Below, one piece after another: positions 5,858-38,866 of a stretch of 49,614 nt of DNA. A program made the translations under genes and the position numbers. The notes under the pieces were generated by a model. It saw only the letters and a list, made by a program, of their open reading frames with translations. It had not been told where the DNA came from and ran no database searches. This DNA comes from Candidatus Omnitrophota bacterium (GTDB lineage: Bacteria; Omnitrophota; Gorgyraeia; Aquiviventales; Aquiviventaceae): the NCBI GenBank assembly GCA_016206675.1, contig JACQRD010000067.1, positions 1 through 49,614 of the forward strand, in the 5' to 3' direction. How positions within the stretch are numbered: position 1 is the first letter of the stretch; each line of letters opens with the position of its first letter.

Positions 5858-6865
5858 ATGCGTGCGGTGTTTTTCGAGACGGCCCCCTGGGAGCGGCGGT
5901 ACCTGACGCGGGCGCTGGCCGCCTCGCGCGCCTCGGTAAAATACGTGACCAGCCCGTTAACGGAGGAAACGTGGCGCGCCGCCGCCACAGCACAGATCCT
6001 CTCGGTGTTCATCTACTCCACGCTCACCGCCGCCGTGCTGCGCCGGCTGCCAACACTGCGCTTGATCGCCACCCGCTCCACCGGCTTCGACCACATCCAC
6101 TTGGCCACCTGCAAGAAGCGGAAGATCACCGTCTGCAACGTCCCCTCCTACGGCGAAAATACGGTGGCGGAGCATACCTTTGCGCTGATCCTCGCGCTGT
6201 CGCGCAACATCCACAAAGCCTACGTCAAGACCACCAAAGGCGACTTCTCCCTCGAGGGGCTGCAAGGCTTCGATCTGAAAGGCAAGACGCTGGGTGTCAT
6301 CGGGGCAGGCCATATCGGCTTGCATGTCATCAAAATGGCCAAGGGTTTCGGCATGGACGTGCTGGTGCACGACGTGGTGAAAAACGTCTTTCTCAGTGAA
6401 GTGCTCGACTACCGGTACGTGCCGCTGGAAACGCTCCTGCGCTCCTCGGACATCGTCAGCCTCCATACGCCGTACCTGCCCTCCACGCACCATCTCATGA
6501 ACCGGAAGACCTTCGGGCTGATGAAGCGCGGCGCCTTGCTGATCAACACGGCGCGCGGTGGCTTGGTGGACACGGACGCCCTGGTCTGGGCGCTCGATGA
6601 GGGGCTCGTCGGCGGAGCCGGGCTGGATGTGCTGGAAGGGGAAGAGCTCGTGAAGGAGGAGCGACAGCTGCTCTCGAAGGACTTCTCAAAGGAGAAGCTG
6701 GCGACGGCCCTGCGCAACCACATCCTACTGCACCGGGAGAACGTCGTGATCACCCCGCACATCGCCTTCGACAGCCGAGAGGCGCTGCAGCGCATTGTGG
6801 AGACGACGGCAGGCAACATCACCGCTTTTCTGGCGGGAGCGCCGGCCAACGTGGTGGCGGCATGA
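5858..6865 (+). CDS. D-isomer-specific 2-hydroxyacid dehydrogenase family protein
   Basis: 335 aa. NAD-binding GVIGAGHIGLHVIKMAKGFGMDV, plus LINTARGGLVD and ITPHIAF motifs. Confidence 0.88.
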   Translation: MRAVFFETAPWERRYLTRALAASRASVKYVTSPLTEETWRAAATAQILSVFIYSTLTAAVLRRLPTLRLIATRSTGFDHIHLATCKKRKITVCNVPSYGENTVAEHTFALILALSRNIHKAYVKTTKGDFSLEGLQGFDLKGKTLGVIGAGHIGLHVIKMAKGFGMDVLVHDVVKNVFLSEVLDYRYVPLETLLRSSDIVSLHTPYLPSTHHLMNRKTFGLMKRGALLINTARGGLVDTDALVWALDEGLVGGAGLDVLEGEELVKEERQLLSKDFSKEKLATALRNHILLHRENVVITPHIAFDSREALQRIVETTAGNITAFLAGAPANVVAA

Positions 6866-6993
6866 TCCCACCACCTGCTGGGTTTCGCCACCCGATGTGC
6901 CAAGAACGACTGAAGGCGAAACGGTCGCTGCTTCTTAAGTCACTTCATGGTTGCAGCGACCGGCCTTCGGCCAGCCAGCAGGTGGTGGGATGA
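6862..6993 (+). repeat. palindromic junction element E1 (ATGA + 17-bp arm ... 17-bp arm + ATGA)
   Basis: Perfect 17-bp inverted repeat: 6865-6881 ATCCCACCACCTGCTGG and 6975-6991 CCAGCAGGTGGTGGGAT. The left arm starts in stop codon TGA 6863-6865; the right arm ends in start codon ATG 6990-6992. Three internal hairpins. Confidence 0.9.
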
Positions 6994-8849
6994 CGAGCGA
7001 CCCCCACGTGCTGCTGGAGAAGGGTGCCCCCGAAGCGCTCGAAGTGACGGAGGCCGCGCGCGAGGCGGAATGGCACCATCCCAGCTTTATCGGCGAGCTG
7101 TTCATGGGGCGGCTGCGCACCGACCTGATCATCCCGTACCCGGAACAGCCGGACGAGGACCGGCAGATCGGCGACGCCTTCCTCGCCACGCTGGAAGCCT
7201 TTCTCCGGAAGCGGATCGATCCGGATGAGATCGACCGCACCGGCGAAATCCCCGCCGAGGTGCTGCAGGGGCTGGCGAAGCTGGGCTGCTTCGGCATGAA
7301 GATCCCGAAGGCGTACGGCGGGCTGGGCCTTTCCCAAACCAACTATAACCGCGCCATCTGCCTCCTTGGGAGTTATTGCGGCTCCACCACCGTCTGGTTG
7401 AGCGCCCATCAGAGCATCGGGGCACCCCAGCCGCTGATGCTCTTCGGGACGGAGGAGCAGAAGCGCAAGTACCTGCCGCGGCTGGCGCAGGGGACCATCT
7501 CCGCCTTCGCGCTGACCGAGCCCGACGTCGGCTCGGATCCGGCGAACATGCTCACCATCGCCGCGCCGACCAAGGATGGGGCGGCCTACCTGCTCACCGG
7601 GGAGAAGCTCTGGTGCACGAATGGTCCCGTCGCCGAAGTCGTCGTCGTCATGGCGCGCACTCCCTCCGTGGCCGTCGGGGGCCGCGAGCGCAAGCAGATC
7701 ACGGCCTTCATTGTGGAAAAGTCCATGCCGGGATTTGAGGTTGTCCATCGCTGCGAGTTCATGGGGTTGAAGGGCATCCAGAACGGCGTGTTGCGCTTTA
7801 CGAACATCCGGGTGCCGAAGGAAAACATCCTGTGGGGCCCGGGCCTGGGATTGAAACTCGCCCTCGTCACGCTCAACGCCGGCCGCATCGCCATCCCGGC
7901 CGGCTGCGTGGGCACCGCCAAGCGCTGCCTGCAGAGTACGCGCGCGTGGGCCAAGGAGCGCAAGCAGTGGGGCGGGCCGATCGGCAAGCACGAAGCGGTG
8001 GCGGTCAAAATCGGCGACATGGCCGCGACAACCATCGCGATGGACGCCATGGTGTGGCTGGCCTCAGCGATGGTGGACCGCAAGACCACGGACATCCGGC
8101 TTGAAGCGGCGATGGCCAAGCTCTTCTGCTCGGAGGCCTGCTGGCGCATCGTCGATGACACCGTGCAGATCCGTGGCGGCCGCGGCTACGAGACGGCCCG
8201 GTCGCTGCGCGCGCGGGGCGAGGCCGCACTGCCGGTTGAGCGCATCATGCGGGACAGCCGGATCAACCTCATCATCGAAGGCACGAGCGACATCATGCGG
8301 CTGTTCATCGCCCGCGAGGCGCTCGATGCCCACATGCGCGCCGTCGCCGATCTGCTCAACCCCCGCACGCCGCCGCCAGCCAAAGCCAAGACCGCGCTGG
8401 CCGCCGCGCTGCGCTATGCCCTGTGGTATCCGCAGCAGTGGCTCTCCTGGAGCGGCTGGCCCAAACACCAGGCGCTGGGGCCCCGATTGGGAGGGCATCT
8501 GCGCTTCATTGAGCGCACCAGCCACCGCCTGGCCCTGGCACTCTTCCACGCCGCCATGCGGCATCAGATGCGGCTGGCCTACCGGCAGCAACTGCTGGGC
8601 CGACTGGTCGATATCGGCGGCGACCTCTTCGCGATGGCGGCGGCGTGCGCGAAGGCGCACGCCATGGTCCGGCTGCAACCCTCGGAGCAGAGTCCGGTAG
8701 AGCTGGCGGATTTGTTTTGCCGCCTGGCGAAACGGCGGATCGCGCTGGCATTTGCGCAGCTGCACCGCAACGATGACCGCACCTCTTACCGGATGGCGCA
8801 AGATGTGCTCAATGGCCGCATGGCATGGCTTGAAGAAGGGATCGTCTAG
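6990..8849 (+). CDS. acyl-CoA dehydrogenase family protein with long C-terminal extension
   Basis: ATG 6990 (MTSDPHVLLEKG) is preceded by AGGTGGTGGG. ACAD core (FALTEPDVGSDPANM, RFTNIRVPKENILWG, QIRGGRGYE) plus about 200 extra C-terminal residues. Track start 6951 lies inside element E1. Confidence 0.88.
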   Translation: MTSDPHVLLEKGAPEALEVTEAAREAEWHHPSFIGELFMGRLRTDLIIPYPEQPDEDRQIGDAFLATLEAFLRKRIDPDEIDRTGEIPAEVLQGLAKLGCFGMKIPKAYGGLGLSQTNYNRAICLLGSYCGSTTVWLSAHQSIGAPQPLMLFGTEEQKRKYLPRLAQGTISAFALTEPDVGSDPANMLTIAAPTKDGAAYLLTGEKLWCTNGPVAEVVVVMARTPSVAVGGRERKQITAFIVEKSMPGFEVVHRCEFMGLKGIQNGVLRFTNIRVPKENILWGPGLGLKLALVTLNAGRIAIPAGCVGTAKRCLQSTRAWAKERKQWGGPIGKHEAVAVKIGDMAATTIAMDAMVWLASAMVDRKTTDIRLEAAMAKLFCSEACWRIVDDTVQIRGGRGYETARSLRARGEAALPVERIMRDSRINLIIEGTSDIMRLFIAREALDAHMRAVADLLNPRTPPPAKAKTALAAALRYALWYPQQWLSWSGWPKHQALGPRLGGHLRFIERTSHRLALALFHAAMRHQMRLAYRQQLLGRLVDIGGDLFAMAAACAKAHAMVRLQPSEQSPVELADLFCRLAKRRIALAFAQLHRNDDRTSYRMAQDVLNGRMAWLEEGIV

Positions 8850-10646: not shown

Positions 10647-10650
<4 letters not shown>

Positions 10651-12692
10651 GCGATGTCATTGAAGGCGTGTGGGACGCGCCGTCGATCGGGCAGCGGATC
10701 AGCTACCGCCTGTGGAAGCCGCCGCAGGCGCGCAGCACGCTGGTCATCATCCACGGCTTCGGCGAACATGGCGGACGGTATGCCGACGTCGCAGACGCCC
10801 TGGCAGCGGAAGGGTTGTGCGTCGCCGCGCCGGATCTCTGCGGGCATGGCCGTTCCTCCGGCGCGCGGGGAGACATCGGGGACATCCCCTCGTGCGTGGA
10901 CGCGCTGGAAGCTCTGACGCGTCAGGTGCTTCTGCCGCAGACAGGACATCAGCAGTACGCCCTCTTCGGCCACAGCTTCGGCGGCTTGGCCGCCATCTGG
11001 TGGGCGATGAGCCAGCCGGCCGGCCTGCGCCGGCTGATCGTCCAGTCGCCCCTGCTGGAGACGGCCTTCACTATCCCCGCATGGAAGAAGCGGCTCTCGC
11101 GCCTGGTCATGGCGTGCTGGCCGGCCTTCGGCCTCTCCATGAATTTGGAGACGAGCGCGCTCAGCCATGACCCTGCCGTGGTGGACGCCTACCGCCAGGA
11201 TCCGCTGGTGCACAATACCATGAGTGCCCGATGTTATTGGTCGCTCATCCGAACCCGCGACGAAGCGCAGGCGCACCCGGAGCGGGTGCGCGTGCCGACG
11301 CTGCTGCTCTATGGCACGGCCGACCGGATCGTCTCCACCGCGGTGGCGCAACGGTGGTTCGATCAGCTGGCGTGCGACAAGCAATGCGTCGTCTTTCCGG
11401 ACGCGTACCACGAGCTCCATCACGAGCCGGTCCGTCCCGAGGTGCTGCGGCGCATCGCCGCCTGGTCGCTTGCGGCGGTGATGGCCCTTGCGCTGGCCTC
11501 TTCCGCGGTGGCCGAGCCGCCGCCGGCGACGGAAGAGACGGATTGGCCGACGGTGATCGCCCGCCTGCAACAGGAGGTGCAGCAACGCCCCGGCTTAGCG
11601 CACACCCGCCAGCAGCTGGCGATTGCGTACAACAACTACGGTGTGGTCCTCGGCAATGAGGGGCAGTGGGAGCAGGCCGTCCGGCAGCTTCAAGAAGCCG
11701 TGCAGCTTGATCCGGCCAACACGCAGGCGAAGGAGAATCTCAGCCGCATCTACCTCAACCGGGCGCATGAGGCCTACCAGCAGCGCAGGTTTCCGGATGC
11801 CCTGTCAGCCATCGAACTGGCCCTGCAGGCCAACCCGGAGCTGGCCCAGGCCTACGCCCTGCGGGGGGAGCTGGAGTACAACCAGCAGAAGCTCAAGGAA
11901 GCCAAGGCCTCCTGGGAGCAGGCGTTGAAGCTCGACCCCTCACAGCCCGAGATCGGCAAGCGGCTGGAACAGGTCACGCAGGAGCTGCCGGTCGAATCGG
12001 ACTTTGAGCGGGTATCGCAGGCCTCCTTTGACATCCGCTATCAAGAAGGGCTCGAAAGCGCCATCGGCTTCGATGTCCGCGATGTGCTGTTGCAGGCTCG
12101 GCGGGAAGTCGGCTCCGACTTCGCCTATTGGCCGAAGCACCGGCTGGTCGTCCTCGTTTACAGCGCGGAGAGCTTCAAGCAGCTGCGGCAGGAAACGCCG
12201 GAATGGCTCGCCGGACAGTTCGACGGCAAAATCCGCGTGCCGCTGCCCAGCAAGCAGCTGAATCCTCAGACGGTCAAAGCGATTCTGTTCCACGAGTACA
12301 CCCATGCGCTCATCTACGATTTGACCAATGGCACGTGCCCCATCTGGCTGAATGAGGGCCTGGCTGAATACGAAGGCCGGCGGCAGGCGCCTGGACCAAT
12401 GGCGCCATTGCGGCAGGCCCAGATGGACAGCCGGCTGACGCCGTGGAAGGACCTATCGGACGGCTTCTCGCCCGCGCTGACGGCTGAAGCGGTATCGTTA
12501 GCTTATCAGCAGTCGTACAGCATCGCCGCTTATCTAGTTGAGCGATACGGCTTTTGGCGCATTCGCCGCATCCTCAAGGTGATCGGAGAAGGCAAGGCGT
12601 GGGAAACCGCCCTGTCGGATGAGTTCCGCCTGAAGCTCAAGACGATCGAAGGCAACTGGCAGGCGTGGCTGCCGGAGTTTCTCCGCCGATGA
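10647..12692 (+). CDS. alpha/beta hydrolase (lysophospholipase-like) + hydrophobic segment + TPR repeats + HExxH peptidase-like domain, single ORF
   Basis: 681 aa. HGFGEHGGRY and GHSFGG nucleophile elbow. Hydrophobic AAWSLAAVMALALASSAVA (nt 11457-11510). TPR-like repeats. C-terminal FHEYTHAL...NEGLAEY. The ATG overlaps the upstream stop (ATGA). Confidence 0.75.
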
Positions 12693-12823
12693 TCCCCCCA
12701 CCTGCTGGAGGCGTTGCTCCAATAGACTTTCATGCTCAGCAACGCCTTAAATGTGCCAGAGGGATTACTGACATTGCCACATTCCGGTCCGCCGCTGGCG
12801 GACCCCGGCAGGTGGGGGGATGA
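12689..12823 (+). repeat. palindromic junction element E2
   Basis: Arms 12692-12708 ATCCCCCCACCTGCTGG and 12805-12821 CCGGCAGGTGGGGGGAT give 16 Watson-Crick pairs plus one T/G position. Left ATGA 12689-12692 holds the stop; right ATGA 12820-12823 holds the PolX start. Confidence 0.9.
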
Positions 12824-14550
12824 AGCAACACGAGATCGCCGCGCTGTTTGCCAAGATGGCGGATCTGCTGGAATTCCAGGGGGAAAACGTCTTCCGCATC
12901 CGGGCGTACCGCCGGGCGGCGCAGAACCTTGAGAGCTTCAGCGGGGATCTTGACCAGCTGGCCGCCGCCGGAACACTACAAGAACTCTCAGGCATCGGCG
13001 CTGACCTGGCAGCCAAAATCCAGGAGTACCTGACGACGGGACGGATTGCCGCCATTGAGCAGCTGACCCGCTCGATGCCAAAAGGCGCGCTGGAGATGAT
13101 GGAGATTCCCGGCGTCGGCCCTAAGACGGCCAAGCAGCTCTCTCAGCAGCGCCGCATTGCCTCGGTTGCCCAGCTGGAGGCGGCGGCCCGCGCCGGCCAG
13201 CTGAAAGGCCTACCGGGCTTTCAGCAGAAGAAGGAGCAGAACATCCTCAAGGGGATCGAGATCGTCAAGCGCGGCCAGGCCCGCATGCACTTAGGTCTAG
13301 CCTGGCCTCTGGCACAGGAGATTGCGCGCTTCCTCGAGAAGGTGCCGGGTGTTTCGCGCGTCTCGCCCGCCGGCAGCCTGCGCCGCATGAAGGAAACCAT
13401 CGGCGACCTGGATCTGCTGGCCGCCGCCGCCAAGCCGCTGAAGGTCATGGACGCCCTGCGCGCAGCACCCTTCTGCGCCAGGGTGCTCGTCTCGGGCGAG
13501 ACGAAAACCTCCATCATCACCACCGGCGGCATCCAGGTGGACGTGCGCGTGGTGAAGCCCGACAGTTTCGGGGCAGCGCTGCAGTATTTCACCGGCTCCA
13601 AGGAGCACAACGTCCGCCTGCGGGAGTTGGCTGCCAAGCAGGGCCTAAAAATCAACGAGTACGGCGTCTTCTCGCTCAAGACTGGACGAAAGATGACCGG
13701 CAGGGAAGAGGAGGACGTCTACAAGGCGGTGGGGCTGCGGTGGATGCCGCCTGAGCTGCGGGAGGACCGCGGCGAGCTCGACGCCGCACGCACGGACGCG
13801 CTGCCGCAGCTGGTGGAGGCCAATCACCTGCGGGGAGATTTCCACATCCACACGAACTGGTCCGACGGCAGCGATTCGCTGCCTGAGGTGGTCCGGGCCG
13901 GCGAACAGATGGGTTACGACTACATCGCCATCTGCGACCACTCCCAGTCGTTGAAGGTGGCCCATGGCATGACGGTTGAGCGCCTGCGGCAGCAGATGAA
14001 GGAGATCCGGCAGCTCAACGCCCGCAGTAGATCGTTTCGGGTGTTGATGGGCGCTGAGGTGGACATCCTCAACGAAGGCCGCATGGACTATCCCGATGAG
14101 GTGCTCGCCGAGCTGGATTTCGTCGTCGGCTCCATCCATTCGGGCTTTACGCAGAGCGAAGCGGCCCTCACGAAACGGATGATCACCGCCATGCGTAACC
14201 CCTACGTCACCTTGATCGCACACCCGACGGGCCGCTTGATGGGCCAGCGGGAGCCGTACGCGATCGACCTGGAAGCCGTCTTCCGCGCGGCGAAGGAGAC
14301 CGGCACCGCCATGGAGATCAACGCCTATCCTCAGCGGCTGGATCTCTGCGATACCGCAGCCCATCGGGCAGGGGAACTCGGCATCATGCTGGCGATTTCC
14401 ACCGATACCCATGGCCTCGACCAGTATCAGAACATCACCTACGGCCTGGGCGTAGCCCGCCGGGCCTGGCTGACCAAGCGGCAGTTGCTCAATTGCTTCT
14501 CTCTGAAAGAGCTGTTGTCCTGGATCGGCAAGAAACGCCGGCGGGCATGA
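12820..14550 (+). CDS. polX: DNA polymerase X family protein with C-terminal PHP domain
   Basis: 576 aa. HhH PolX N-terminus (FRIRAYRRAAQNL, IPGVGPKTAKQL), GSLRRMKETIGDLDLL, PHP motif DFHIHTNWSDG. Confidence 0.9.
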   Translation: MKQHEIAALFAKMADLLEFQGENVFRIRAYRRAAQNLESFSGDLDQLAAAGTLQELSGIGADLAAKIQEYLTTGRIAAIEQLTRSMPKGALEMMEIPGVGPKTAKQLSQQRRIASVAQLEAAARAGQLKGLPGFQQKKEQNILKGIEIVKRGQARMHLGLAWPLAQEIARFLEKVPGVSRVSPAGSLRRMKETIGDLDLLAAAAKPLKVMDALRAAPFCARVLVSGETKTSIITTGGIQVDVRVVKPDSFGAALQYFTGSKEHNVRLRELAAKQGLKINEYGVFSLKTGRKMTGREEEDVYKAVGLRWMPPELREDRGELDAARTDALPQLVEANHLRGDFHIHTNWSDGSDSLPEVVRAGEQMGYDYIAICDHSQSLKVAHGMTVERLRQQMKEIRQLNARSRSFRVLMGAEVDILNEGRMDYPDEVLAELDFVVGSIHSGFTQSEAALTKRMITAMRNPYVTLIAHPTGRLMGQREPYAIDLEAVFRAAKETGTAMEINAYPQRLDLCDTAAHRAGELGIMLAISTDTHGLDQYQNITYGLGVARRAWLTKRQLLNCFSLKELLSWIGKKRRRA

Positions 14551-14690
14551 TCCCACCACCTGCGCCGGCTTGCCTCCGGCAAGCCAGGAAGCCACGGCGA
14601 GCAGATTATATCCTTTGGGCCTGTGGCTTCCGCACGGCGCCTCAGGGCGCAAAACCCAGAGAACGCCGTAAGGCGCAGGTGGTGGGATGA
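14547..14690 (+). repeat. palindromic junction element E3 (interior apparently flipped relative to E1/E2)
   Basis: Perfect 17-bp arms 14550-14566 ATCCCACCACCTGCGCC and 14672-14688 GGCGCAGGTGGTGGGAT. Left ATGA 14547-14550 holds the PolX stop; right ATGA 14687-14690 holds the era start. Confidence 0.9.
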
Positions 14691-15613
14691 GCAGCGCCGC
14701 CCCGGCCGGCTTCCGCTGCGGCTATGTGAGCCTCATCGGGCGGCCCAACGTGGGCAAGTCGACCATCCTCAACGCGCTGCTGGGGGAGAAGGTGGCGATC
14801 ATCTCTCCGAAGCCACAGACGACCCGGCAGCGGATTCTCGGCGTGCTGACTCGTCCTGAGGCCCAGGTGATGTTTCTCGATACGCCGGGGCTGCACAAGC
14901 CGGAGCACACATTAGGCCGCTACATGGTCGAGGTGGCCAAGGCCGCCATTGAAGAAGCGGACGTGCTGGTCGTGATCATCGACGGGCGCGCGGGCATCAC
15001 GGCGGAGGATGAGCGGGTGTTCTCCTCCGTCAAGAACGCCCTGCGCGAGGATGGGCGCAAGCGGCCGGTCCTGCTGGCCATCAACAAGGTGGACATCGCC
15101 AGCAAACCGAAACTCCTGCCGCTGCTGGAGCGCTGTGCCAAGCTGGGCATCTTCGATGACTGCATTCCGATTTCGGCGACGACGGGCGACCAGCTCAAGA
15201 TTCTCCTGAAGGAGATCGTCGCGCGCCTGCCGGAGGGGCCCCGCTGGTATGAGCCGCAACAGCGCACCGACCAGACGCGCGAGCAGATGGTCTCGGAGCT
15301 CATCCGCGAGCAGGTGCTCGCCGCCACGCGGCAGGAGGTGCCCCATGCCGTCGCCGTGCTGATCGACGAGCTCGAAGACCGGGATAAGGTGACCTCCATC
15401 CGGGCCACGATCCTGGTTGAGCGCGATGGGCAGAAGGCCATTGTGATCGGCCGGGGCGGAATGATGCTCAAGCAGATCGGGCAGGAGGCGCGCCGGCAGC
15501 TGGAGCGGCTGCTGGGCCGCAAGGTCTTCTTGGGGCTCTGGGTGAAGGTCGCCGAAGGCTGGCGCAGTGATGAACGCATCCTGCGCCAGCTGGGCTACCT
15601 CTCCGGATCGTGA
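14687..15613 (+). CDS. era: GTPase Era
   Basis: 308 aa. G1 GRPNVGKST, G3 DTPG, G4 NKVD, C-terminal KH domain (VERDGQKAIVIGRGGMMLKQIG). Confidence 0.93.
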   Translation: MSSAAPAGFRCGYVSLIGRPNVGKSTILNALLGEKVAIISPKPQTTRQRILGVLTRPEAQVMFLDTPGLHKPEHTLGRYMVEVAKAAIEEADVLVVIIDGRAGITAEDERVFSSVKNALREDGRKRPVLLAINKVDIASKPKLLPLLERCAKLGIFDDCIPISATTGDQLKILLKEIVARLPEGPRWYEPQQRTDQTREQMVSELIREQVLAATRQEVPHAVAVLIDELEDRDKVTSIRATILVERDGQKAIVIGRGGMMLKQIGQEARRQLERLLGRKVFLGLWVKVAEGWRSDERILRQLGYLSGS

Positions 15614-26330: not shown

Positions 26331-26404
26331 TGCCCCAGCGCCGATTCGAACGGCGGACACGCGGTTTAGGAAACCGCTGCTCTTCCATACTGAGCTACTG
26401 GGGC
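26331..26404 (-). tRNA. tRNA-Arg (anticodon CCU)
   Basis: The reverse complement folds as a 74-nt cloverleaf: acceptor GCCCCAG/CTGGGGC, D arm GCTC-AGTATGGAA-GAGC, anticodon arm GCGGT-TTCCTAA-ACCGC, variable GTGTC, T arm CGCCG-TTCGAAT-CGGCG, discriminator A. No encoded CCA. Followed by CTTTTT. Confidence 0.93.
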
Positions 26405-30117: not shown

Positions 30118-32258
30118 GAGGGCTCCTGTTGTAAGACGGTAAGTTTCGAGAGGTCGGCAACCCGGTCAGTATACAACGCATGGATTGCGCGCATCAAGGC
30201 GAGCCGGTTGCGTTGCAGCGCCTCGTCGGGCACGTTGACCAGCACCTTGTCGAAGAACGTGTGCAGCGGCTCATAGAAGAGCTCTCCGAATTCTAGCGTG
30301 GCTTTGTCGTACAGGCGGTCGGTGATGAGCTTCGCGACCCGCTCCTTATGCTGATCGTACAACCGCCACAGTGCCTGCTCCGGCGGCTCCTTCAGCAGTT
30401 GCGGCTGCACCTGGCCGTCCGCACGCTTGGCCCCTTTGAGGATGTTGCGCGTGCGCTCGATGACCTTCGCGGCCTTCAGCAGCCCGGCCTGGCCGCTCAT
30501 CCGCTGGAGGGTGCGGATGCGGTCCATGGCATCGATCATATCTTCCCATGGACAGGCCAGCACAGCGTCAATACAGTCCGATGAAGGGGCCGGGGATGGC
30601 CAGTTGAAGGTGTAGAGTCTTTCTGCAAGGTAGCTGCGAACACGCTGTTGTACCTTCGCATCAGGTGGCTTTCCAGCAGCCGCCGACCATGCGTTGAACA
30701 GATTCTCAAACAACAGCGGTCGATGCGCAGCCCATGCCACTTCTATGATTCCTTGCGCGGCACGCCGAAGACCAAAAGGATCCTGATCTCCTGTCGGTTC
30801 GATGCCGATGCTAAAGTAACTCGCGAAGGTATCAAATTTGTCCAGGCTAGCTAGTGCAGAACCAATGAGGGTCTTGGGCATCTTACCAGCAAGTGGCAGG
30901 TAGTGCTCCTCGATTGCTTGACACACGGCGTCAGATTCACGATGGATTCTGGCGTAGTATTTCCCCATCACACCCTGCAAAGTCGGAAACTCCCTGACCA
31001 TAACGCTACCAAGGTCAGCCTTGGCAAGCTGGCTGGCCCGTTCAAGCTCTTTGGACTCTTGATTCGTCAGGTTCCACATCTTGCTAAGGTTTCTGCTCAT
31101 CTGGCAGAGGCGGTTGACCTTGTCCTGCACAGAGCCCAACTTTTCGTGGAAGGTGATTCCGGCAGCCTTGACGGCAAGCACGTTTAGTTGCTGTTTAGTG
31201 TCCTGCTCCCAGAACAACAAGCTATCCGCCAGGCGGGCGTTGAGGATACGCTCCACCACCGTGCGCACCTCCGACGGCTTGCCGGGCTTGCCGTCCAGGA
31301 TGGCGACGCAGCGCGGCAGCAGCTTCCCGTTGGCCTCAATGGCGAAAACGCGCTGGTGCTTGGCCATGCTGGCCAGCAGCACTTCGCGCGGCAGGACCAG
31401 ATAGCGCTTATCGAATTCGCCGACCAACGGCACCGGCTCTTCCGTCAAGAAGGTCACTTCCTCCAGCAGGCCGTGGCTGATCATCTCCGCCGCCGTGGTG
31501 CCGCGGAAGGCCTTGGCGGTTTTGGCCACCAGGCTGTCAATGACGGCGCGCCGCTGGCTTGGATCGAGGATCACCCCGACGCGCTTCAGCAGCTTGAAGT
31601 AGGATTCAATGGAGGAAACCGTCGCCCAGCGCAACTGCTGCGGCCGTCCCACGCGTGTCTTAGATTGGCCGGCGATCAAACCGAAGCGGCACGAAACCGC
31701 CTGCGCGCCATAGCGGGCCAGCAGCCAACGGATGGGCCGGGCGAAGCGCACGCCGCTGGCCTCCCAGCGCATACTCTTCGGCGCGCGCAGCTTTGTGATA
31801 AGCTGCGGCAGCAGGGCCGGCAGCAGCTTGACGGTCGGGGTGGTCGTGGGCGGCTTCATGAGGTAGACGTAGTCGCCCTTCGGCGTTGAGACGACTTTGG
31901 TGTGGCGGATGTCTCCGCCTTGCGACTTGAGGAAACCGAGCAGGGCCGGCGTGGGCTTGCCGGAGGCGTCGTAGGAGGCCTGCTTCGAGGGGCCGCGCAC
32001 CTCCTCGCCGGGCTGCTGTTGCACCGCGGAGAGCCCGCGCACGTGTAGCACCAACCGGCGCGGCGTGCCGTACGTCGCTGCCGAGTGGAACGCCAGGTGG
32101 TTGGCTTCACACAGCGTCTTGGCTTCCCGGTCGAGCTGTTCAATCAGCCCAGGCAGGTACGCCGCCGGCAGCTCCTCCGTCCCGATTTCAAAGAGAAGAT
32201 CAGCTGACCGCGAAGCTGGAGGTTGGAGGCTGGAGGCGGGAATGGATTTCTTTTTCAT
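30114..32258 (-). CDS. glyS: glycine--tRNA ligase beta subunit
   Basis: 714 aa. [12 protein letters not shown] near the N-terminus. The first ~20 codons ([18 protein letters not shown]) are read from a heptamer repeat arm. Confidence 0.9.
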
Positions 32259-32287
32259 CCAACTTCCAGCTGCTTGCTTCCAGCTTC
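32212..32287 (-). repeat. heptamer-array hairpin, GAAGCTG family, copy 1, spanning the glyQ stop / glyS start
   Basis: Plus strand: GAAGCTG GAGGTTG GAGGCTG GAGGCGG ... CCAACTT CCAGCTG CTTGCTT CCAGCTTC. Best hand register is 32212-32226 with 32259-32273 (15 nt, 2 mismatches). ATGA 32255-32258 lies at the loop edge. Confidence 0.8.
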
Positions 32288-33127
32288 AGGGCATCGTTTG
32301 AGGTACATCTCCGCGCAGCGCTTGGCCAACCCGCGGATGCGCAGCACGAAGCGCGGCCGGTCGGACTGGCTGATGGCGCCGCGCGCATCCAGCAGGTTGA
32401 AGGTGTGGCTGCATTTGAGCAGCTGTTCGTACGCCGGCAGCAGCATCTGGGCCTCGAGCAGCCGCTTGGCATCCGCCTCGAACTTCGCGAAGAGCTCCTG
32501 ATGTAGTGCCACGTCCGCCTGCTCGAAGTTATACGCGGAGCACTCCCGCTCATTCGCCAGGTGCAATGCGCCGTAGGTGACCCCTGGGCCGTAGGCGAGC
32601 GCGTAGACATCCGGCGTGCCCTGCAGGTACGTGGCGATGCGCTCAAGGCCGTAGGTGATTTCGCAGGAAACCGGCTCAAGGTCCAGCCCCCCCACCTGCT
32701 GGAAATAGGTAAACTGCGTCACTTCGAGGCTGTCCATCCACACTTCCCAGCCCAGCCCCCAGGCGCCGAGCGTCGGCGATTCCCAGTCATCCTGCACGAA
32801 GCGAACGTCGTGATCCTCCAGCTTCAGCCCACAGGCGCGCAGGCTCTCGAGATAGCGCTGCTGCACGTTCTCCGGCGAGGGCTTCAGGATCACCTGATAT
32901 TGGTAGTAGCGCTGCATCCGCAGCGGGTTGTCGCCGTAGCGGCCGTCCGTAGGCCGGCGGGAGGGCTGTACATAGGCCGCGCGGGTCGGCGCCGGACCCA
33001 GCGCCCCAAAGAACGTGGCGGGGTGGAACGTCCCCGCCCCCATCTCCATGTCGTAGGGCTGGAGAATCGCGCAGCCTTCGCGCTCCCAAAACGTATCCAG
33101 CGTTCGAATGAGTCGTTGAAGGTCCAT
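32255..33127 (-). CDS. glyQ: glycine--tRNA ligase alpha subunit
   Basis: ATG 33127 gives [39 protein letters not shown], a classic GlyQ N-terminus. Track start 33190 translates the repeat. Confidence 0.92.
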
Positions 33128-33132
33128 AGGCA

Positions 33133-33909
33133 CTAGACCCGAGACCCGTGACTCGCGACCCGAGTCTCGGGTCTCGAGTCTCGAGTCCACCCAGCTAATG
33201 TCTTTAGCGGTCTATCCAGGCGCCAACGCAGGAACTCATCCAGCCGGCGGCGCAATCCTGGCAGCGCGTGAGCATCCAGGGCGATGGGCTGATCGCTCTC
33301 CGAGAGCCGCTCCAAGGTTTCCAACGTGCTGTGCAGCACCGGTTCGGCCTTCGGATCCTCGTGCAGACAGTTGGCGCACAGCAATCCGCCCTGCTGCGCG
33401 CTCCAGTAGCCGGCGTGATGCACCATCGCGCCACACCCGGTGCACTCATCCACCTGCGGCTGAAAGCCGGCCAGCCGCAGAAACCGCACGATGAAATGGG
33501 TCCGGATCATCGCGGGGTCGGATCCGGCCACGGCCAGATGCTCCAGCGCCGACTTCAGCAGCCGGTAGACCGCCGGCTGCGGCTCATTCAGCGGGACGAC
33601 CGTATCCACCAGATCGACGCACAGCGCAGCGCTGCGGGCGACCTCCAGTTCCTGCTGCAGTGCCGCCAGCGGAGCCAGCAGCTCGCATTGGCTGATGAGA
33701 TGGAGCTGGCTGGTGTGCGTGTCGTAGAAGACGATGCGGTTGACCGTCATCGGCTCCATGGCGCTGCGATGGCGGTTCGGCAGCTGGCGCAACCCCTTGA
33801 TGAGCCCTTTCAGCTTGCCGTAGCGGTCCGTCAGGCAGCTGACTACGACGCTGGTTTCACGGTAGAAATACCGGCGCAGGACGATGGCATCTGCTGCATG
33901 AATGCCCAT
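33133..33909 (-). CDS. recO: DNA repair protein RecO
   Basis: ATG 33909 gives [27 protein letters not shown]. Cys cluster CTGCG...CANC. The C-terminal ~17 residues are encoded by a repeat. Confidence 0.85.
33135..33188 (-). repeat. heptamer-array hairpin, GACCCGA/GTCTCGA family, copy 1
   Basis: AGACCCGAGACCCGTGACTCGCGACCCGAGTCTCGGGTCTCGAGTCTCGAGTCC with a perfect central hairpin GACCCGA-gtc-TCGGGTC. About 95% identical to 33914-33967. Confidence 0.85.
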
Positions 33910-33911
33910 TG

Positions 33912-34427
33912 TTAGACCCGAGACCCGTGACTCGTGACCCGAGTCCCGAGTCTCGAGTCTCGAGTCCAACGCTTGGTATCTTCCGAACAGTTCGCCAATA
34001 GTCTATCTTCCAACTTTCGCATTTCTCGTTGCTGGGTGAGCGTGCGGTCGTCATGGCCGAGCCAGTGCAAAATGCCATGGACGACGTAGCGCGAGAGCTC
34101 CTGCGCGTACGACACGCCGTGGGCCTGGGCGTAGCGCTGCGCTTCCTTGGGTGCGACGAGCACCTCGCCGACAACCTGCCTGCGCCGTAGCGGCGCAGGC
34201 CAGCAGGTCGGCTCTCCCTCATACCGGAAACTGAGCACGTCGGTGGAGCGGTCGTGGCGCGTAAACCGGCGGTTGAGGCGGCGCATGCGCCCGGTGTCAA
34301 TGAAGGTGATGGCCAGCTCCCCGCCGCCACGGATCTTCAGCCGCCGCACCGCGGCGCGCGCCAGCTGTCGCATCCGGGCGGCGCTGACCGGGGCTTGCCG
34401 CTGGGCGTTGGTCACCCGCACCCGCAT
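33912..34427 (-). CDS. ybeY: rRNA maturation RNase YbeY
   Basis: HGILHWLGHDD zinc motif. The C-terminal tail TRDSRLGTRVTSHGSRV is encoded by a repeat. 1-nt TGATG overlap with phoH. Confidence 0.88.
   Translation of the reverse strand: MRVRVTNAQRQAPVSAARMRQLARAAVRRLKIRGGGELAITFIDTGRMRRLNRRFTRHDRSTDVLSFRYEGEPTCWPAPLRRRQVVGEVLVAPKEAQRYAQAHGVSYAQELSRYVVHGILHWLGHDDRTLTQQREMRKLEDRLLANCSEDTKRWTRDSRLGTRVTSHGSRV
33914..33967 (-). repeat. heptamer-array hairpin, GACCCGA/GTCTCGA family, copy 2
   Basis: AGACCCGAGACCCGTGACTCGTGACCCGAGTCCCGAGTCTCGAGTCTCGAGTCC, lying between the ybeY stop and the recO start. Confidence 0.85.
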
Positions 34428-35386
34428 CAGTGATGGTTGTGATTGATTTTGTCATAGGCGCTGATGATCGCCTGCACCAGCTCATGGCGTACCACGTCCT
34501 GCCCGCTGAAGAGCGCGAAGGCGATGCCGGGAATCTCCGCCAGGAGCGTCTGCACCTGGATCAGGCCGGAGGACTTCTCTGGCGGCAAGTCGATCTGCGT
34601 GACGTCGCCGGTCACCACGGCCTTCGAATCGAACCCGAGCCGGGTGAGGAACATTTTCATTTGCTCCGGGGTGGTGTTCTGTGCCTCATCCAGGACGATA
34701 AAGGAGTCGTTCAAGGTGCGGCCGCGCATGAAGGCCAGCGGGGCGACCTCGATGATGCCGCGGTCGAGATACCGCTGCACCATGTCCATCTCCATCATCT
34801 CGTAGAGCGCGTCATAGAGCGGGCGCAGGTACGGGTTGATCTTCTCGGCCATGTCGCCCGGCAGATAGCCGAGCCGCTCCCCCGCCTCCACCGCCGGCCT
34901 CGCGAGGATGATGCGGGAGACCTCTCCCTTCGTGAGGCTCTCCACCGCCATGGCCATTGCTAAGAAACTCTTCCCTGTACCAGCGGGCCCGATAGCGAAG
35001 ACAATGTCGTGCTTGCGCATGGCGTCCACGTAGGCCTTTTGCCCCGGCGTGCGCGGAATCACGAACCGCCGCTTGGAGGGCACCTCGATGCGCTCCTGGT
35101 ACATCTGGCGCAGCTGGACGAGCTTCGAGTCCTGCAGCGCTCGCAGCGCGTAGTCGACGTCTTCCCGGCGCAGCGGAGCACCCGAGCGCACAATGACCAG
35201 CAGATCGTCAAAGAGCCGCGCGGCCTTCGCGATGACCTCCGGCTGGCCGGCGATCTTCATCTCCTCGGCGCGCATGACGACCGAGACGCCGAGCACCTGC
35301 TCGATGCGCCGCAGATGCTGGTCGTGCTTGCCGAAGAGCGCTTGCGCTTCCTGCGCGCCGCGCAGCGTCACCGATTGCTCAGCCAT
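34427..35386 (-). CDS. phoH: PhoH-like ATPase
   Basis: 319 aa. Walker A GPAGTGKSFLAMAMAV, VLDEAQNTT, conserved PhoH C-terminus. Confidence 0.9.
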   Translation of the reverse strand: MAEQSVTLRGAQEAQALFGKHDQHLRRIEQVLGVSVVMRAEEMKIAGQPEVIAKAARLFDDLLVIVRSGAPLRREDVDYALRALQDSKLVQLRQMYQERIEVPSKRRFVIPRTPGQKAYVDAMRKHDIVFAIGPAGTGKSFLAMAMAVESLTKGEVSRIILARPAVEAGERLGYLPGDMAEKINPYLRPLYDALYEMMEMDMVQRYLDRGIIEVAPLAFMRGRTLNDSFIVLDEAQNTTPEQMKMFLTRLGFDSKAVVTGDVTQIDLPPEKSSGLIQVQTLLAEIPGIAFALFSGQDVVRHELVQAIISAYDKINHNHH

Positions 35387-35395
35387 CGCAATACG

Positions 35396-35472
35396 GAAGC
35401 TGGACGTTGGAAGCTAGAAGCTGGAACAAGCCATGCGTTCTTTCCAGCTTCCAGCCTCCTGCTTCCAGCTTC
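35396..35472 (-). repeat. heptamer-array hairpin, GAAGCTG family, copy 2
   Basis: GGAAGCT GGACGTT GGAAGCT AGAAGCT GGAAC ... TTCCAGC TTCCAGC CTCCTGC TTCCAGC TTC. Both ends are homologous to 32212-32287. Confidence 0.8.
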
Positions 35473-38790: not shown

Positions 38791-38866
38791 ATTGCGGATT
38801 GCGGAATGCGGATTGCGGATTTGGAAAGCCGAAAATCCGAACTCCGCAATCCGAAATCCGCAATTA
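38791..38866 (-). repeat. heptamer-array hairpin (ATTGCGG units ... TCCGCAA units)
   Basis: ATTGCGG ATTGCGG AATGCGG ATTGCGG ATTTGGA aagccgaaaa TCCGAAC TCCGCAA TCCGAAA TCCGCAA TT, lying between the HU stop and the hisS start. Confidence 0.85.

Follow-up and report, generated by a model that had tools for sequence, protein, structure and literature searches.

Probable start-codon-targeting miniature inverted-repeat elements that bridge adjacent genes with a mini-ORF in Omnitrophota

We here describe a repeated sequence element that occupies three gene junctions in a 49,614-nt contig of a Candidatus Omnitrophota bacterium (GenBank JACQRD010000067.1; this whole stretch is hereafter called the window). 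It is likely, in our judgment, that this is a non-autonomous mobile element of the miniature inverted-repeat transposable element (MITE) type, which has start codons as its target, carries a miniature open reading frame (mini-ORF) serving as a translational relay, and was confined to Omnitrophota in the searches made. The three copies, denoted E1, E2 and E3 (Table 1), all lie between co-directional genes on the + strand and share the layout ATGA-TCCCMCCACCTGC…GCAGGTGGKGGGA-TGA, folding as a closing helix with three hairpins, and their interiors have no mutual sequence relation. For E1, the sequence that separates the ORF at 5858..6865 from the one with its end at 8849 is ATGA-TCCCACCACCTGCTGG … CCAGCAGGTGGTGGGA-TGA. 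The original prediction, made from the letters of the window alone, had pointed to a perfect 17-bp inverted repeat at this junction (6865-6881 and 6975-6991) with ATGA at both ends, including the stop codon of the upstream ORF and an ATG (6990-6992) in frame with the downstream ORF, and all of this was found to be present, as were the same design at E2 and E3 and the plain ATGA/TCAT gene overlaps listed for other parts of the window (10647, 16931, 30114, 32255, 47607 and 48218). What had been taken for a spacer between two genes was, however, an open mini-ORF, the start and stop of which overlap the flanking stop and start codons.

Comparison with related genomes revealed that the element is mobile (L-numbers are used here as labels of the genomic loci compared). 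In relatives with about 75% nucleotide identity the genes follow the same order, thiolase–3HCDH–ECH–2-Hacid_dh–ACAD–AMP-binding … PolX–Era, and the element is absent from all three junctions, which are instead the empty sites that had been anticipated, with ATGA at the positions of E1 and E2 and GTGA at that of E3. The E1 site of the window thus has the filled sequence ggcggcATGA[element]TGAcgagc, the corresponding site being the empty cgcgcATGAcgcc (ATGACGCC) in L154, a 4-nt spacer in L153 and an 8-nt overlap in L155. The E2 site was empty in six loci of six, reading ATGAAGCA(A/G)CA in L153, L154, L155, L073, L074 and L075, with the TGA doubling as the upstream stop in all but the last of these, and at the E3 site L154 and L073 had a GTGA overlap. 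A filled site consequently equals an empty site plus the element plus TGA. The PolX frame downstream of E2, which opens with MKQHEIAALF, and the Era frame downstream of E3, having an N-terminus with GRPNVGKS, both align with the starts of their relatives. On another contig we found a copy (L156) that matched E1 at 92% identity from end to end, including the loops, with the similarity bounded exactly by the two ATGAs and with neighbours, an HTH_17 gene and a histidine kinase gene, unrelated to those of E1; in addition, there were sub-families of which one and the same metagenome-assembled genome (MAG) held several similar copies. The empty sites, the transposed copy, the terminal inverted repeats (TIRs) and the target duplication described below therefore together identify a mobile, MITE-like element. 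A 27-nt derivative consisting of arms only, ATGA-TCCCCCCACCTG-ACG-CAGGTGGGGGGA-TGA, was also observed in L155 (14699-14725, within 14695-14728) between an AMP-binding and a hydrolase gene; it shares the frame of the gene that follows and may be either an internal deletion or an excision footprint.

The distribution of the element was determined by scanning one genome per species for TCCCMCCACCTGC-N88-118-GCAGGTGGKGGGA with the flanking bases left free, which gave 72 loci, all of them in approximately 22 Omnitrophota MAGs with GC contents of about 46 to 67%. Copies can be dense, with three in this 49.6-kb contig and at least 16 loci in MAG SBAZ01, and the end motif had six matches in the window against 0.01 expected. 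A left-arm-like CCAGCCCCCCCACCTGCTGGA at 32683-32703, within a coding region of the - strand and lacking a partner arm, is most likely a chance match. For the counts given below we used a set of 92 copies, in the arms of which two mismatches were allowed and where the element was 113-144 bp long with rare copies of 27-226 bp. Identical trinucleotides flanked both sides in 78 of the 92, being TGA in 74, TAA in two, and CGA and ACA in one each.

When oriented by the TGA, the left tetranucleotide was ATGA in 65 copies, GTGA in seven, TTGA in six and CTGA in three, and the base before TGA was A, G or T, thus making a start codon, in 78 of the 92 copies. The right junction was always …GGGA followed by TGA. 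Because the A at the right remains A also when the left flank is GTGA, TTGA or CTGA, the duplicated target is TGA and not ATGA. The ATG composed of the last A of the element and the subsequent TG is the beginning of a long ORF in 70 of the 74 TGA copies, and 61 of the 74 have a left TGA that doubles as the stop codon of a long ORF lying upstream. Of the remaining 13, some are separated by an interval from the end of the upstream gene and others lie behind a promoter-like region or a tRNA gene (examples are L004, L007, L010, L018, L052, L054, L066 and L071), and what is common to all copies is hence a downstream start codon followed by A, rather than an overlap as such. The usual site can accordingly be described as a TGA that ends an ATGA (or GTGA/TTGA) at a start codon, mostly within a 4-nt stop/start overlap of an operon. 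The first of two proposals in the original prediction, that of a miniature element inserting at ATGA stop/start overlaps with duplication of its target, was therefore borne out regarding mobility, duplication and the location of the copies, also elsewhere, at stop and start codons, but it had to be amended in that the duplicated unit is the 3-bp TGA and that the common denominator is the downstream start.

Related copies mostly had the same orientation relative to the gene, with 74 forward pairs against three reverse. Stop codons in the inverted frame account for this bias in some families, but not in a family of 134-nt elements. One family occurs in both orientations, with L004 being inverted relative to L024 and L042, thereby ruling out that orientation is mechanistically fixed. 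A copy in L009 (5032-5199) with a TAA/TAA duplication and arms …CCTGT/ACAGG… was located at a TAATG stop/start junction, the downstream gene beginning with MPRIVGVDVPKGKR (rpsM-like), and TAA stop codons can therefore also serve as targets. A short version of 69 nt with two hairpins only, flanked by TCA/TCA, was seen in L039 (2682-2750). Tandem pairs sharing one TGA, with covarying arms particular to each pair, were found in L008 (5599-5884), in L068 (467-711, the same as L154 2268-2512) and in L061 (7803-8000); such pairs are as expected, since the element remakes ATGA at both of its ends and therefore recreates its own target.

It was also clear that the length and the frame of the element are constrained. 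The length from TCCC to GGGA was 2 modulo 3 in 66 of the 92 copies, 0 in 14 and 1 in 12, the common classes forming a 3-nt ladder of 113, 116, 119, 122, 125, 128, 131, 134, 137, 140 and 143. With a length of 2 modulo 3, the right TGA is precisely where the frame beginning at the left (A/G/T)TG terminates, and this frame was free from stop codons in 61 of the 66 copies of such length. Among copies with strict arms the frame was open in 54 of 55, compared with only 25 of 55 (45%) when the elements were inverted. Counting clusters instead of copies, 26 of 31 were 2 modulo 3 (p = 1e-8) and 25 of those 26 were open (p = 3e-8 versus 0.45). Of six copies with a length of 0 modulo 3 that we checked, four had an open frame continuous with that of the downstream gene, which would extend its product at the N-terminus, and most 1-modulo-3 copies had a stop codon inside the element. 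The predicted mini-ORF product has 39-49 codons and the general form M-I-P-P-P-A … Q-V-(V/G)-G, with its start overlapping the upstream stop and its stop overlapping the downstream start. Conservation of the peptide is limited to the two ends specified by the arms, and from one sub-family to another the interiors show no relation, a pattern suggesting that the frame matters and the peptide does not.

The folds of E1, E2 and E3 were highly stable, having minimum free energies of -75.5, -78.0 and -94.8 kcal/mol with z-scores of -6.8, -7.4 and -8.7, respectively, versus dinucleotide shuffles, and the three inner hairpins drawn beforehand for E1 (6882-6889/6915-6922, 6923-6931/6953-6961 and 6962-6965/6969-6972) were exactly those of its minimum-free-energy fold. 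The arms have 13 nt, with the pairing usually extending 3 bp further inward, and they covary, as had been asked of them. At arm position 5, where the search admitted all four combinations, 83 distinct copies comprised 63 with A/T, 17 with C/G and three discordant, giving agreement in 80 of 83; in E2, for example, a change of A to C in the left arm is compensated by T to G in the right, and rarer double changes such as TCCCACGCCCTGC/GCAGGGCGTGGGA were also seen. Inner stems are conserved within sub-families, with five and three compensatory pairs in two alignments of eight sequences each. The pairwise identity was 0.97-1.00 for arms, 0.86-0.94 for inner stems and 0.37 for loops, with the large hairpin loops keeping their length at a nearly random sequence, and of the 11 nucleotide differences between E1 and L156, which are recent copies, 10 were located in loops. 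Searching the copies for signatures of RNA sense, such as an excess of G-U pairs, an energy gap between sense and antisense, or UNCG/GNRA tetraloops, we found none: the mean fold energy was -84.5 kcal/mol for sense and -85.7 kcal/mol for antisense, there were 136 G-U pairs in the sense strand and 178 in the antisense strand, and the terminal loops were mostly of 3 nt with CGAAG and CTTCG equally frequent. The stems are thus protected, but these comparisons give no sign that the protection acts on the sense RNA rather than on the DNA palindrome. Two further ideas were discarded. Loops acting as guides were rejected, as their longest matches to nearby sequence were 8-11 nt, the same as for control loci, and a role as terminator or promoter was dismissed after a consensus scan, in which the elements had no consensus sites on the + strand.

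These features can be combined into a model for how the element would be accommodated. Both flanking genes remain intact because the left TGA still ends the upstream gene and the last A of the element together with TG rebuilds the downstream ATG. The AGGTGG of the right arm, 5 nt upstream of the rebuilt ATG, may then aid re-initiation, and the original start codon would now open the mini-ORF spanning the whole element. A ribosome that ends translation of the upstream gene, or that starts at the old ribosome-binding site, could thereby enter the mini-ORF by initiating at the ATGA overlap and open up the closing helix along with all three hairpins in the course of translation; after termination at the right TGA, it would re-initiate on the overlapping ATG or make this codon accessible. 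In the folded mRNA the distal Shine-Dalgarno (SD) sequence and AUG would be paired, with translation of the mini-ORF unmasking them, and both downstream translation and its coupling to the upstream gene might in this way survive the insertion. Any coupling is most likely to occur by translation of the mini-ORF and not by the terminating ribosome alone. The second proposal of the original prediction, an RNA helix that hides the distal SD and AUG until a ribosome terminating at the proximal UGA melts the left arm, is kept only as a component of such a relay. A far-reaching version, which we regard as distinctly unlikely, would have the element as a start-codon-homing 'translational relay cassette' that combines a dependence of Omnitrophota on the element, a helix lock, a pause at Ile-Pro-Pro-Pro dependent on elongation factor P (EF-P), and active targeting; dozens to hundreds of operon junctions per genome may then be under obligate and tunable translational coupling. 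If the helix or the PPP motif indeed gated translation, this would mean a genome-wide layer of post-transcriptional control in an uncultured phylum.

A number of observations weigh against a translation-relaying MITE as the complete explanation. Copies at harmless TGAs that are not at starts were nearly absent, being at most four of 74, so that tolerance alone is insufficient; a crude gene count over the same loci gave 27 'ATGA' stops without a following gene versus 81 ATGA-overlap sites, and another 79 TGA stops without a following gene that were preceded by G/T (52) or A (27). This excess of start sites implies either an extra targeting step or that unconstrained copies have lost their detectability, and three options remain for the bias: targeted insertion, selective retention at starts, or decay of unconstrained copies past recognition. 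Moreover, 26 of the 92 copies persist without a relay frame, having an internal stop or a gene fusion, and the relay is therefore dispensable, in which case the SD of the right arm may suffice. That the mini-ORFs are translated is a prediction from the frame statistics, and the conservation of stems could be due to palindrome correction at the DNA level (template switching) or to requirements of the mobilizing enzyme. Finally, a search for an autonomous insertion sequence (IS), using arm pairs up to 4 kb apart with at most five mismatches over about 1.3 Mb of loci, yielded only short derivatives and tandem copies, with no arm pair enclosing a gene, no unexplained solo arms and no transposase with matching ends.

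We considered three alternative explanations. If the element were a domesticated riboregulator, its helix of 16-17 bp would pair the anti-SD-like CCACCU with the distal SD and AUG, the distal gene would be translated only once a ribosome from the upstream gene had melted this pairing, the host would retain the element for such obligate coupling, and the PPP motif may add an EF-P-sensitive pause. This is physically plausible because the helix is real: together with the three hairpins it is very stable and conserved by compensatory change, with stems evolving at least 10 times slower than loops even between E1 and L156. The CACCU of the left arm is, we presume, identical to the anti-SD core of 16S rRNA, the copies are found almost exclusively at start codons, beyond what tolerance predicts, and the left arm begins 1 nt past the stop codon, where the footprint of a terminating ribosome would cover it. 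The stems are nevertheless symmetric with regards to strand, being equally stable in sense and antisense without G-U enrichment in the sense strand or excess of UNCG/GNRA, and covarying variants of the arm, TCCCACGCCCTGC among them, no longer encode the PPP motif. The element is also unneeded for coupling, because the closest relatives use plain ATGA or GTGA overlaps at the same three junctions, and we thus find this explanation unlikely.

It seems rather improbable to us that the element is a site-specific recombination module, in which a recombinase would use the flanking TGA as its crossover core (like integron attC, IS110/IS1111 or Xer-dependent elements) and the hairpins as its folded single-stranded substrate. 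The near-invariant target (TGA in 74 of 78 duplications), the predominance of one orientation relative to the gene, the lack of a DDE transposase with matching ends in the 1.3 Mb of loci, and the strand-symmetric, near-perfect palindromes of about attC size with conserved ends and a variable centre would all agree with such a module, but TAA/TAA and CGA/CGA duplications are more readily explained by a staggered cut than by a fixed core, one family is found in both orientations, the ends are unlike the attC core GTTRRRY, and the flanking genes are syntenic housekeeping genes and not cassettes. A 3-bp TNA duplication, TGA included, is furthermore what IS1031-group members of the IS5 family typically produce (PMC12016507). 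A genuine family of small-protein genes (MIPPPA…QVVG) located between operon genes and encoding a functional peptide could explain why the open frame is so strongly maintained and why gene callers occasionally annotate the mini-ORFs. It is nonetheless a highly improbable solution, with interior peptides being unrelated between sub-families, loops having only 37% nucleotide identity, and the 11 nucleotide changes between E1 and L156 resulting in five amino-acid changes with no sign of constraint at the protein level. Pfam searches with the three mini-ORF peptides of E1, E2 and E3 gave no match, and the E1 peptide had only two relatives among 5.8 billion proteins, one of which was a transposed copy.

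The MITE that we favour has the properties by which such elements are commonly recognized, since it is small, has no transposase gene (the mini-ORF being its only ORF), has TIRs and a target duplication, and occurs in dispersed copies that are present or absent at orthologous loci, as evidenced by empty sites in L073, L074, L153, L154 and L155. With the Correia elements of Neisseria, ERIC/IRU and RUP it shares a size of approximately 100-150 bp, TIRs, a short target duplication, dispersed copies and the lack of a transposase gene, and those elements are likewise often co-transcribed with their neighbours and fold into long hairpins. Correia elements have a TA duplication and TIRs of about 26 bp, and exert their effects via promoters, IHF sites and RNase III processing; to our knowledge, no MITE of the Correia, ERIC or RUP type targets or rebuilds start codons or keeps a length of 2 modulo 3 with an open bridging frame. 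Rickettsia palindromic elements (RPEs) are palindromic mobile elements that survive in compact genomes by staying translatable. They do so within protein-coding genes and as part of the protein, whereas the present elements lie between genes as a separate, coupled mini-ORF, and only four of the six 0-modulo-3 copies formed an in-frame fusion with the gene that follows. Integron attC sites have a similar size, conserved and inversely repeated ends, a variable centre, a folded palindrome and a position between genes, but the present ends (TCCCMCC…GGKGGGA) lack the RYYYAAC … GTTRRRY cores, no integrase or cassette array is found nearby, and the neighbours are syntenic core genes between which relatives have no spacer.

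Mycobacterial interspersed repetitive units (MIRUs) are 46-101-bp direct tandem repeats at variable number tandem repeat (VNTR) loci of Mycobacterium, and we know of no description that gives them long TIRs, a duplicated 3-bp TGA or a fold with a four-way junction. The present elements differ from MIRUs in being mostly single, with tandem copies at three loci (L008, L068/L154 and L061) and without VNTR organization, and in having 13-nt covarying TIRs, an Omnitrophota host, and their own SD and start-codon base. The likenesses are that both are short mobile repeats at operon gene junctions, with an internal ORF overlapping the flanking stop and start and with occasional tandem copies, and that both insert at start codons, MIRUs being described as doing so with an internal ORF coupled at -4 nt, thereby limiting the damage to expression (Supply et al. 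1997, cited after PMC12548453). The element is consequently not a MIRU by host or organization but is set beside it by description, MIRUs being the functionally closest and Correia/ERIC-type MITEs the structurally closest of the known systems. For the source of transposase, the IS1031 group exclusively gives 3-bp direct repeats at 5'-TNA-3', including TGA (PMC12016507), to be compared with TGA in 74 and TAA in two of the duplications found here, but also CGA in one and ACA in one. The TIR of ISLrh, GAACCTGTCTAGTATCT (PMC12016507), which is the one reference TIR that was compared, is unlike TCCCACCACCTGC, and no IS1031-type transposase was located near any copy in the approximately 1.3 Mb of loci, making this group only a lead.

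We accordingly regard the element as a new MITE family of an uncultured phylum that has start codons as its target and carries a putative translational relay of its own, any regulatory reading being speculative. For mobile DNA in compact genomes, landing on a start codon while bringing a replacement start, an SD sequence and an open bridging frame should render insertion nearly invisible to translation, and the parallel with MIRUs, of unrelated structure, indicates that a 'relay ORF' strategy may be general. More than 90 copies with constraints in frame, length and stems also provide a natural set for studies of termination and re-initiation across strongly structured RNA. With regards to annotation, mini-ORFs are sporadically called as hypothetical proteins of 38-49 aa, and the long inverted repeats can mislead the prediction of start sites in Omnitrophota MAGs.

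Several of the element-bearing loci (L001, L003, L004, L008-L010, L068/L154 and others, from CAYJWN, CAYJWO, CAYJTP, CAYJQR, CAZKXY and SBAZ01) are labelled as Planctomycetales or Planctomycetia. CAYJWN010000004.1, having the Planctomycetales label, shares synteny with this Omnitrophica contig at a nucleotide identity of about 75%, and those labels of element-bearing MAGs are probably wrong. A search of viral contigs gave no matches to the element, leaving the idea of carriage by phage without support. With Rfam at gathering thresholds, the only match in the whole window was a tRNA at 26331-26404 (-), and no covariance model matched 6800-7060 with E ≤ 1. A literature search for the arm sequence and for repeat elements of Omnitrophota retrieved nothing relevant.

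Table 1. Positions in the window of the three element copies and of the parts of E1.
Feature	Position	Strand	Description
E1, whole	6862..6993	+	From the ATG overlapping the upstream stop to the TGA overlapping the downstream start; 43-codon mini-ORF, MIPPPAGFRHPMCQERLKAKRSLLLKSLHGCSDRPSASQQVVG*
E1, left TGA	6863..6865	+	Left member of the duplicated 3-bp target; also ends the 2-hydroxyacid dehydrogenase gene (5858..6865) as its stop codon
E1, left TIR	6866..6878	+	TCCCACCACCTGC; pairing continues to 6881; encodes I-P-P-P-A; contains CACCU
E1, hairpin 1	6882..6922	+	8-bp stem kept within the 125-nt sub-family; 25-nt loop, freely variable
E1, hairpin 2	6923..6961	+	9-bp stem with compensatory changes among relatives; loop variable
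E1, hairpin 3	6962..6972	+	GGCC TTC GGCC
E1, right TIR	6978..6990	+	GCAGGTGGTGGGA; SD-like AGGTGG 5 nt ahead of the start
E1, final base of right TIR	6990	+	A6990, the A of the rebuilt start codon
E1, right TGA	6991..6993	+	Right copy of the duplication; mini-ORF stop; T6991 and G6992 are the last two bases of the ATG that starts the acyl-CoA dehydrogenase gene (6990..8849)
E2, whole	12689..12823	+	Arm variant TCCCCCCACCTGC/GCAGGTGGGGGGA; 44-codon mini-ORF, MIPPPAGGVAPIDFHAQQRLKCARGITDIATFRSAAGGPRQVGG; between the ORF at 10647..12692 and the PolX gene (12820..14550)
E3, whole	14547..14690	+	47-codon mini-ORF, MIPPPAPACLRQARKPRRADYILWACGFRTAPQGAKPRERRKAQVVG; between PolX (stop 14548-14550) and era (start 14687)

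Other palindromic sequences were also seen at gene junctions of the window. A second type of junction hairpin, with arms made of short GAAGCTGGA-like tandem motifs, was found at 35396-35472 and 32212-32287, among genes of the - strand. On that strand, the sequence at 35396-35472 follows upon a TAA, begins with ATGAAGCTGG and has an open frame of 31 codons, the TGA of which overlaps the next start as ATGGCTGA (gene 34427..35386), and judging from this arrangement it may be another bridging mini-ORF element. Intergenic palindromes composed of short repeats, of the ATTGCGG type and the GAGACCCGAGAC type, were finally noted between - strand genes at 38791-38864 and 33128-33181.

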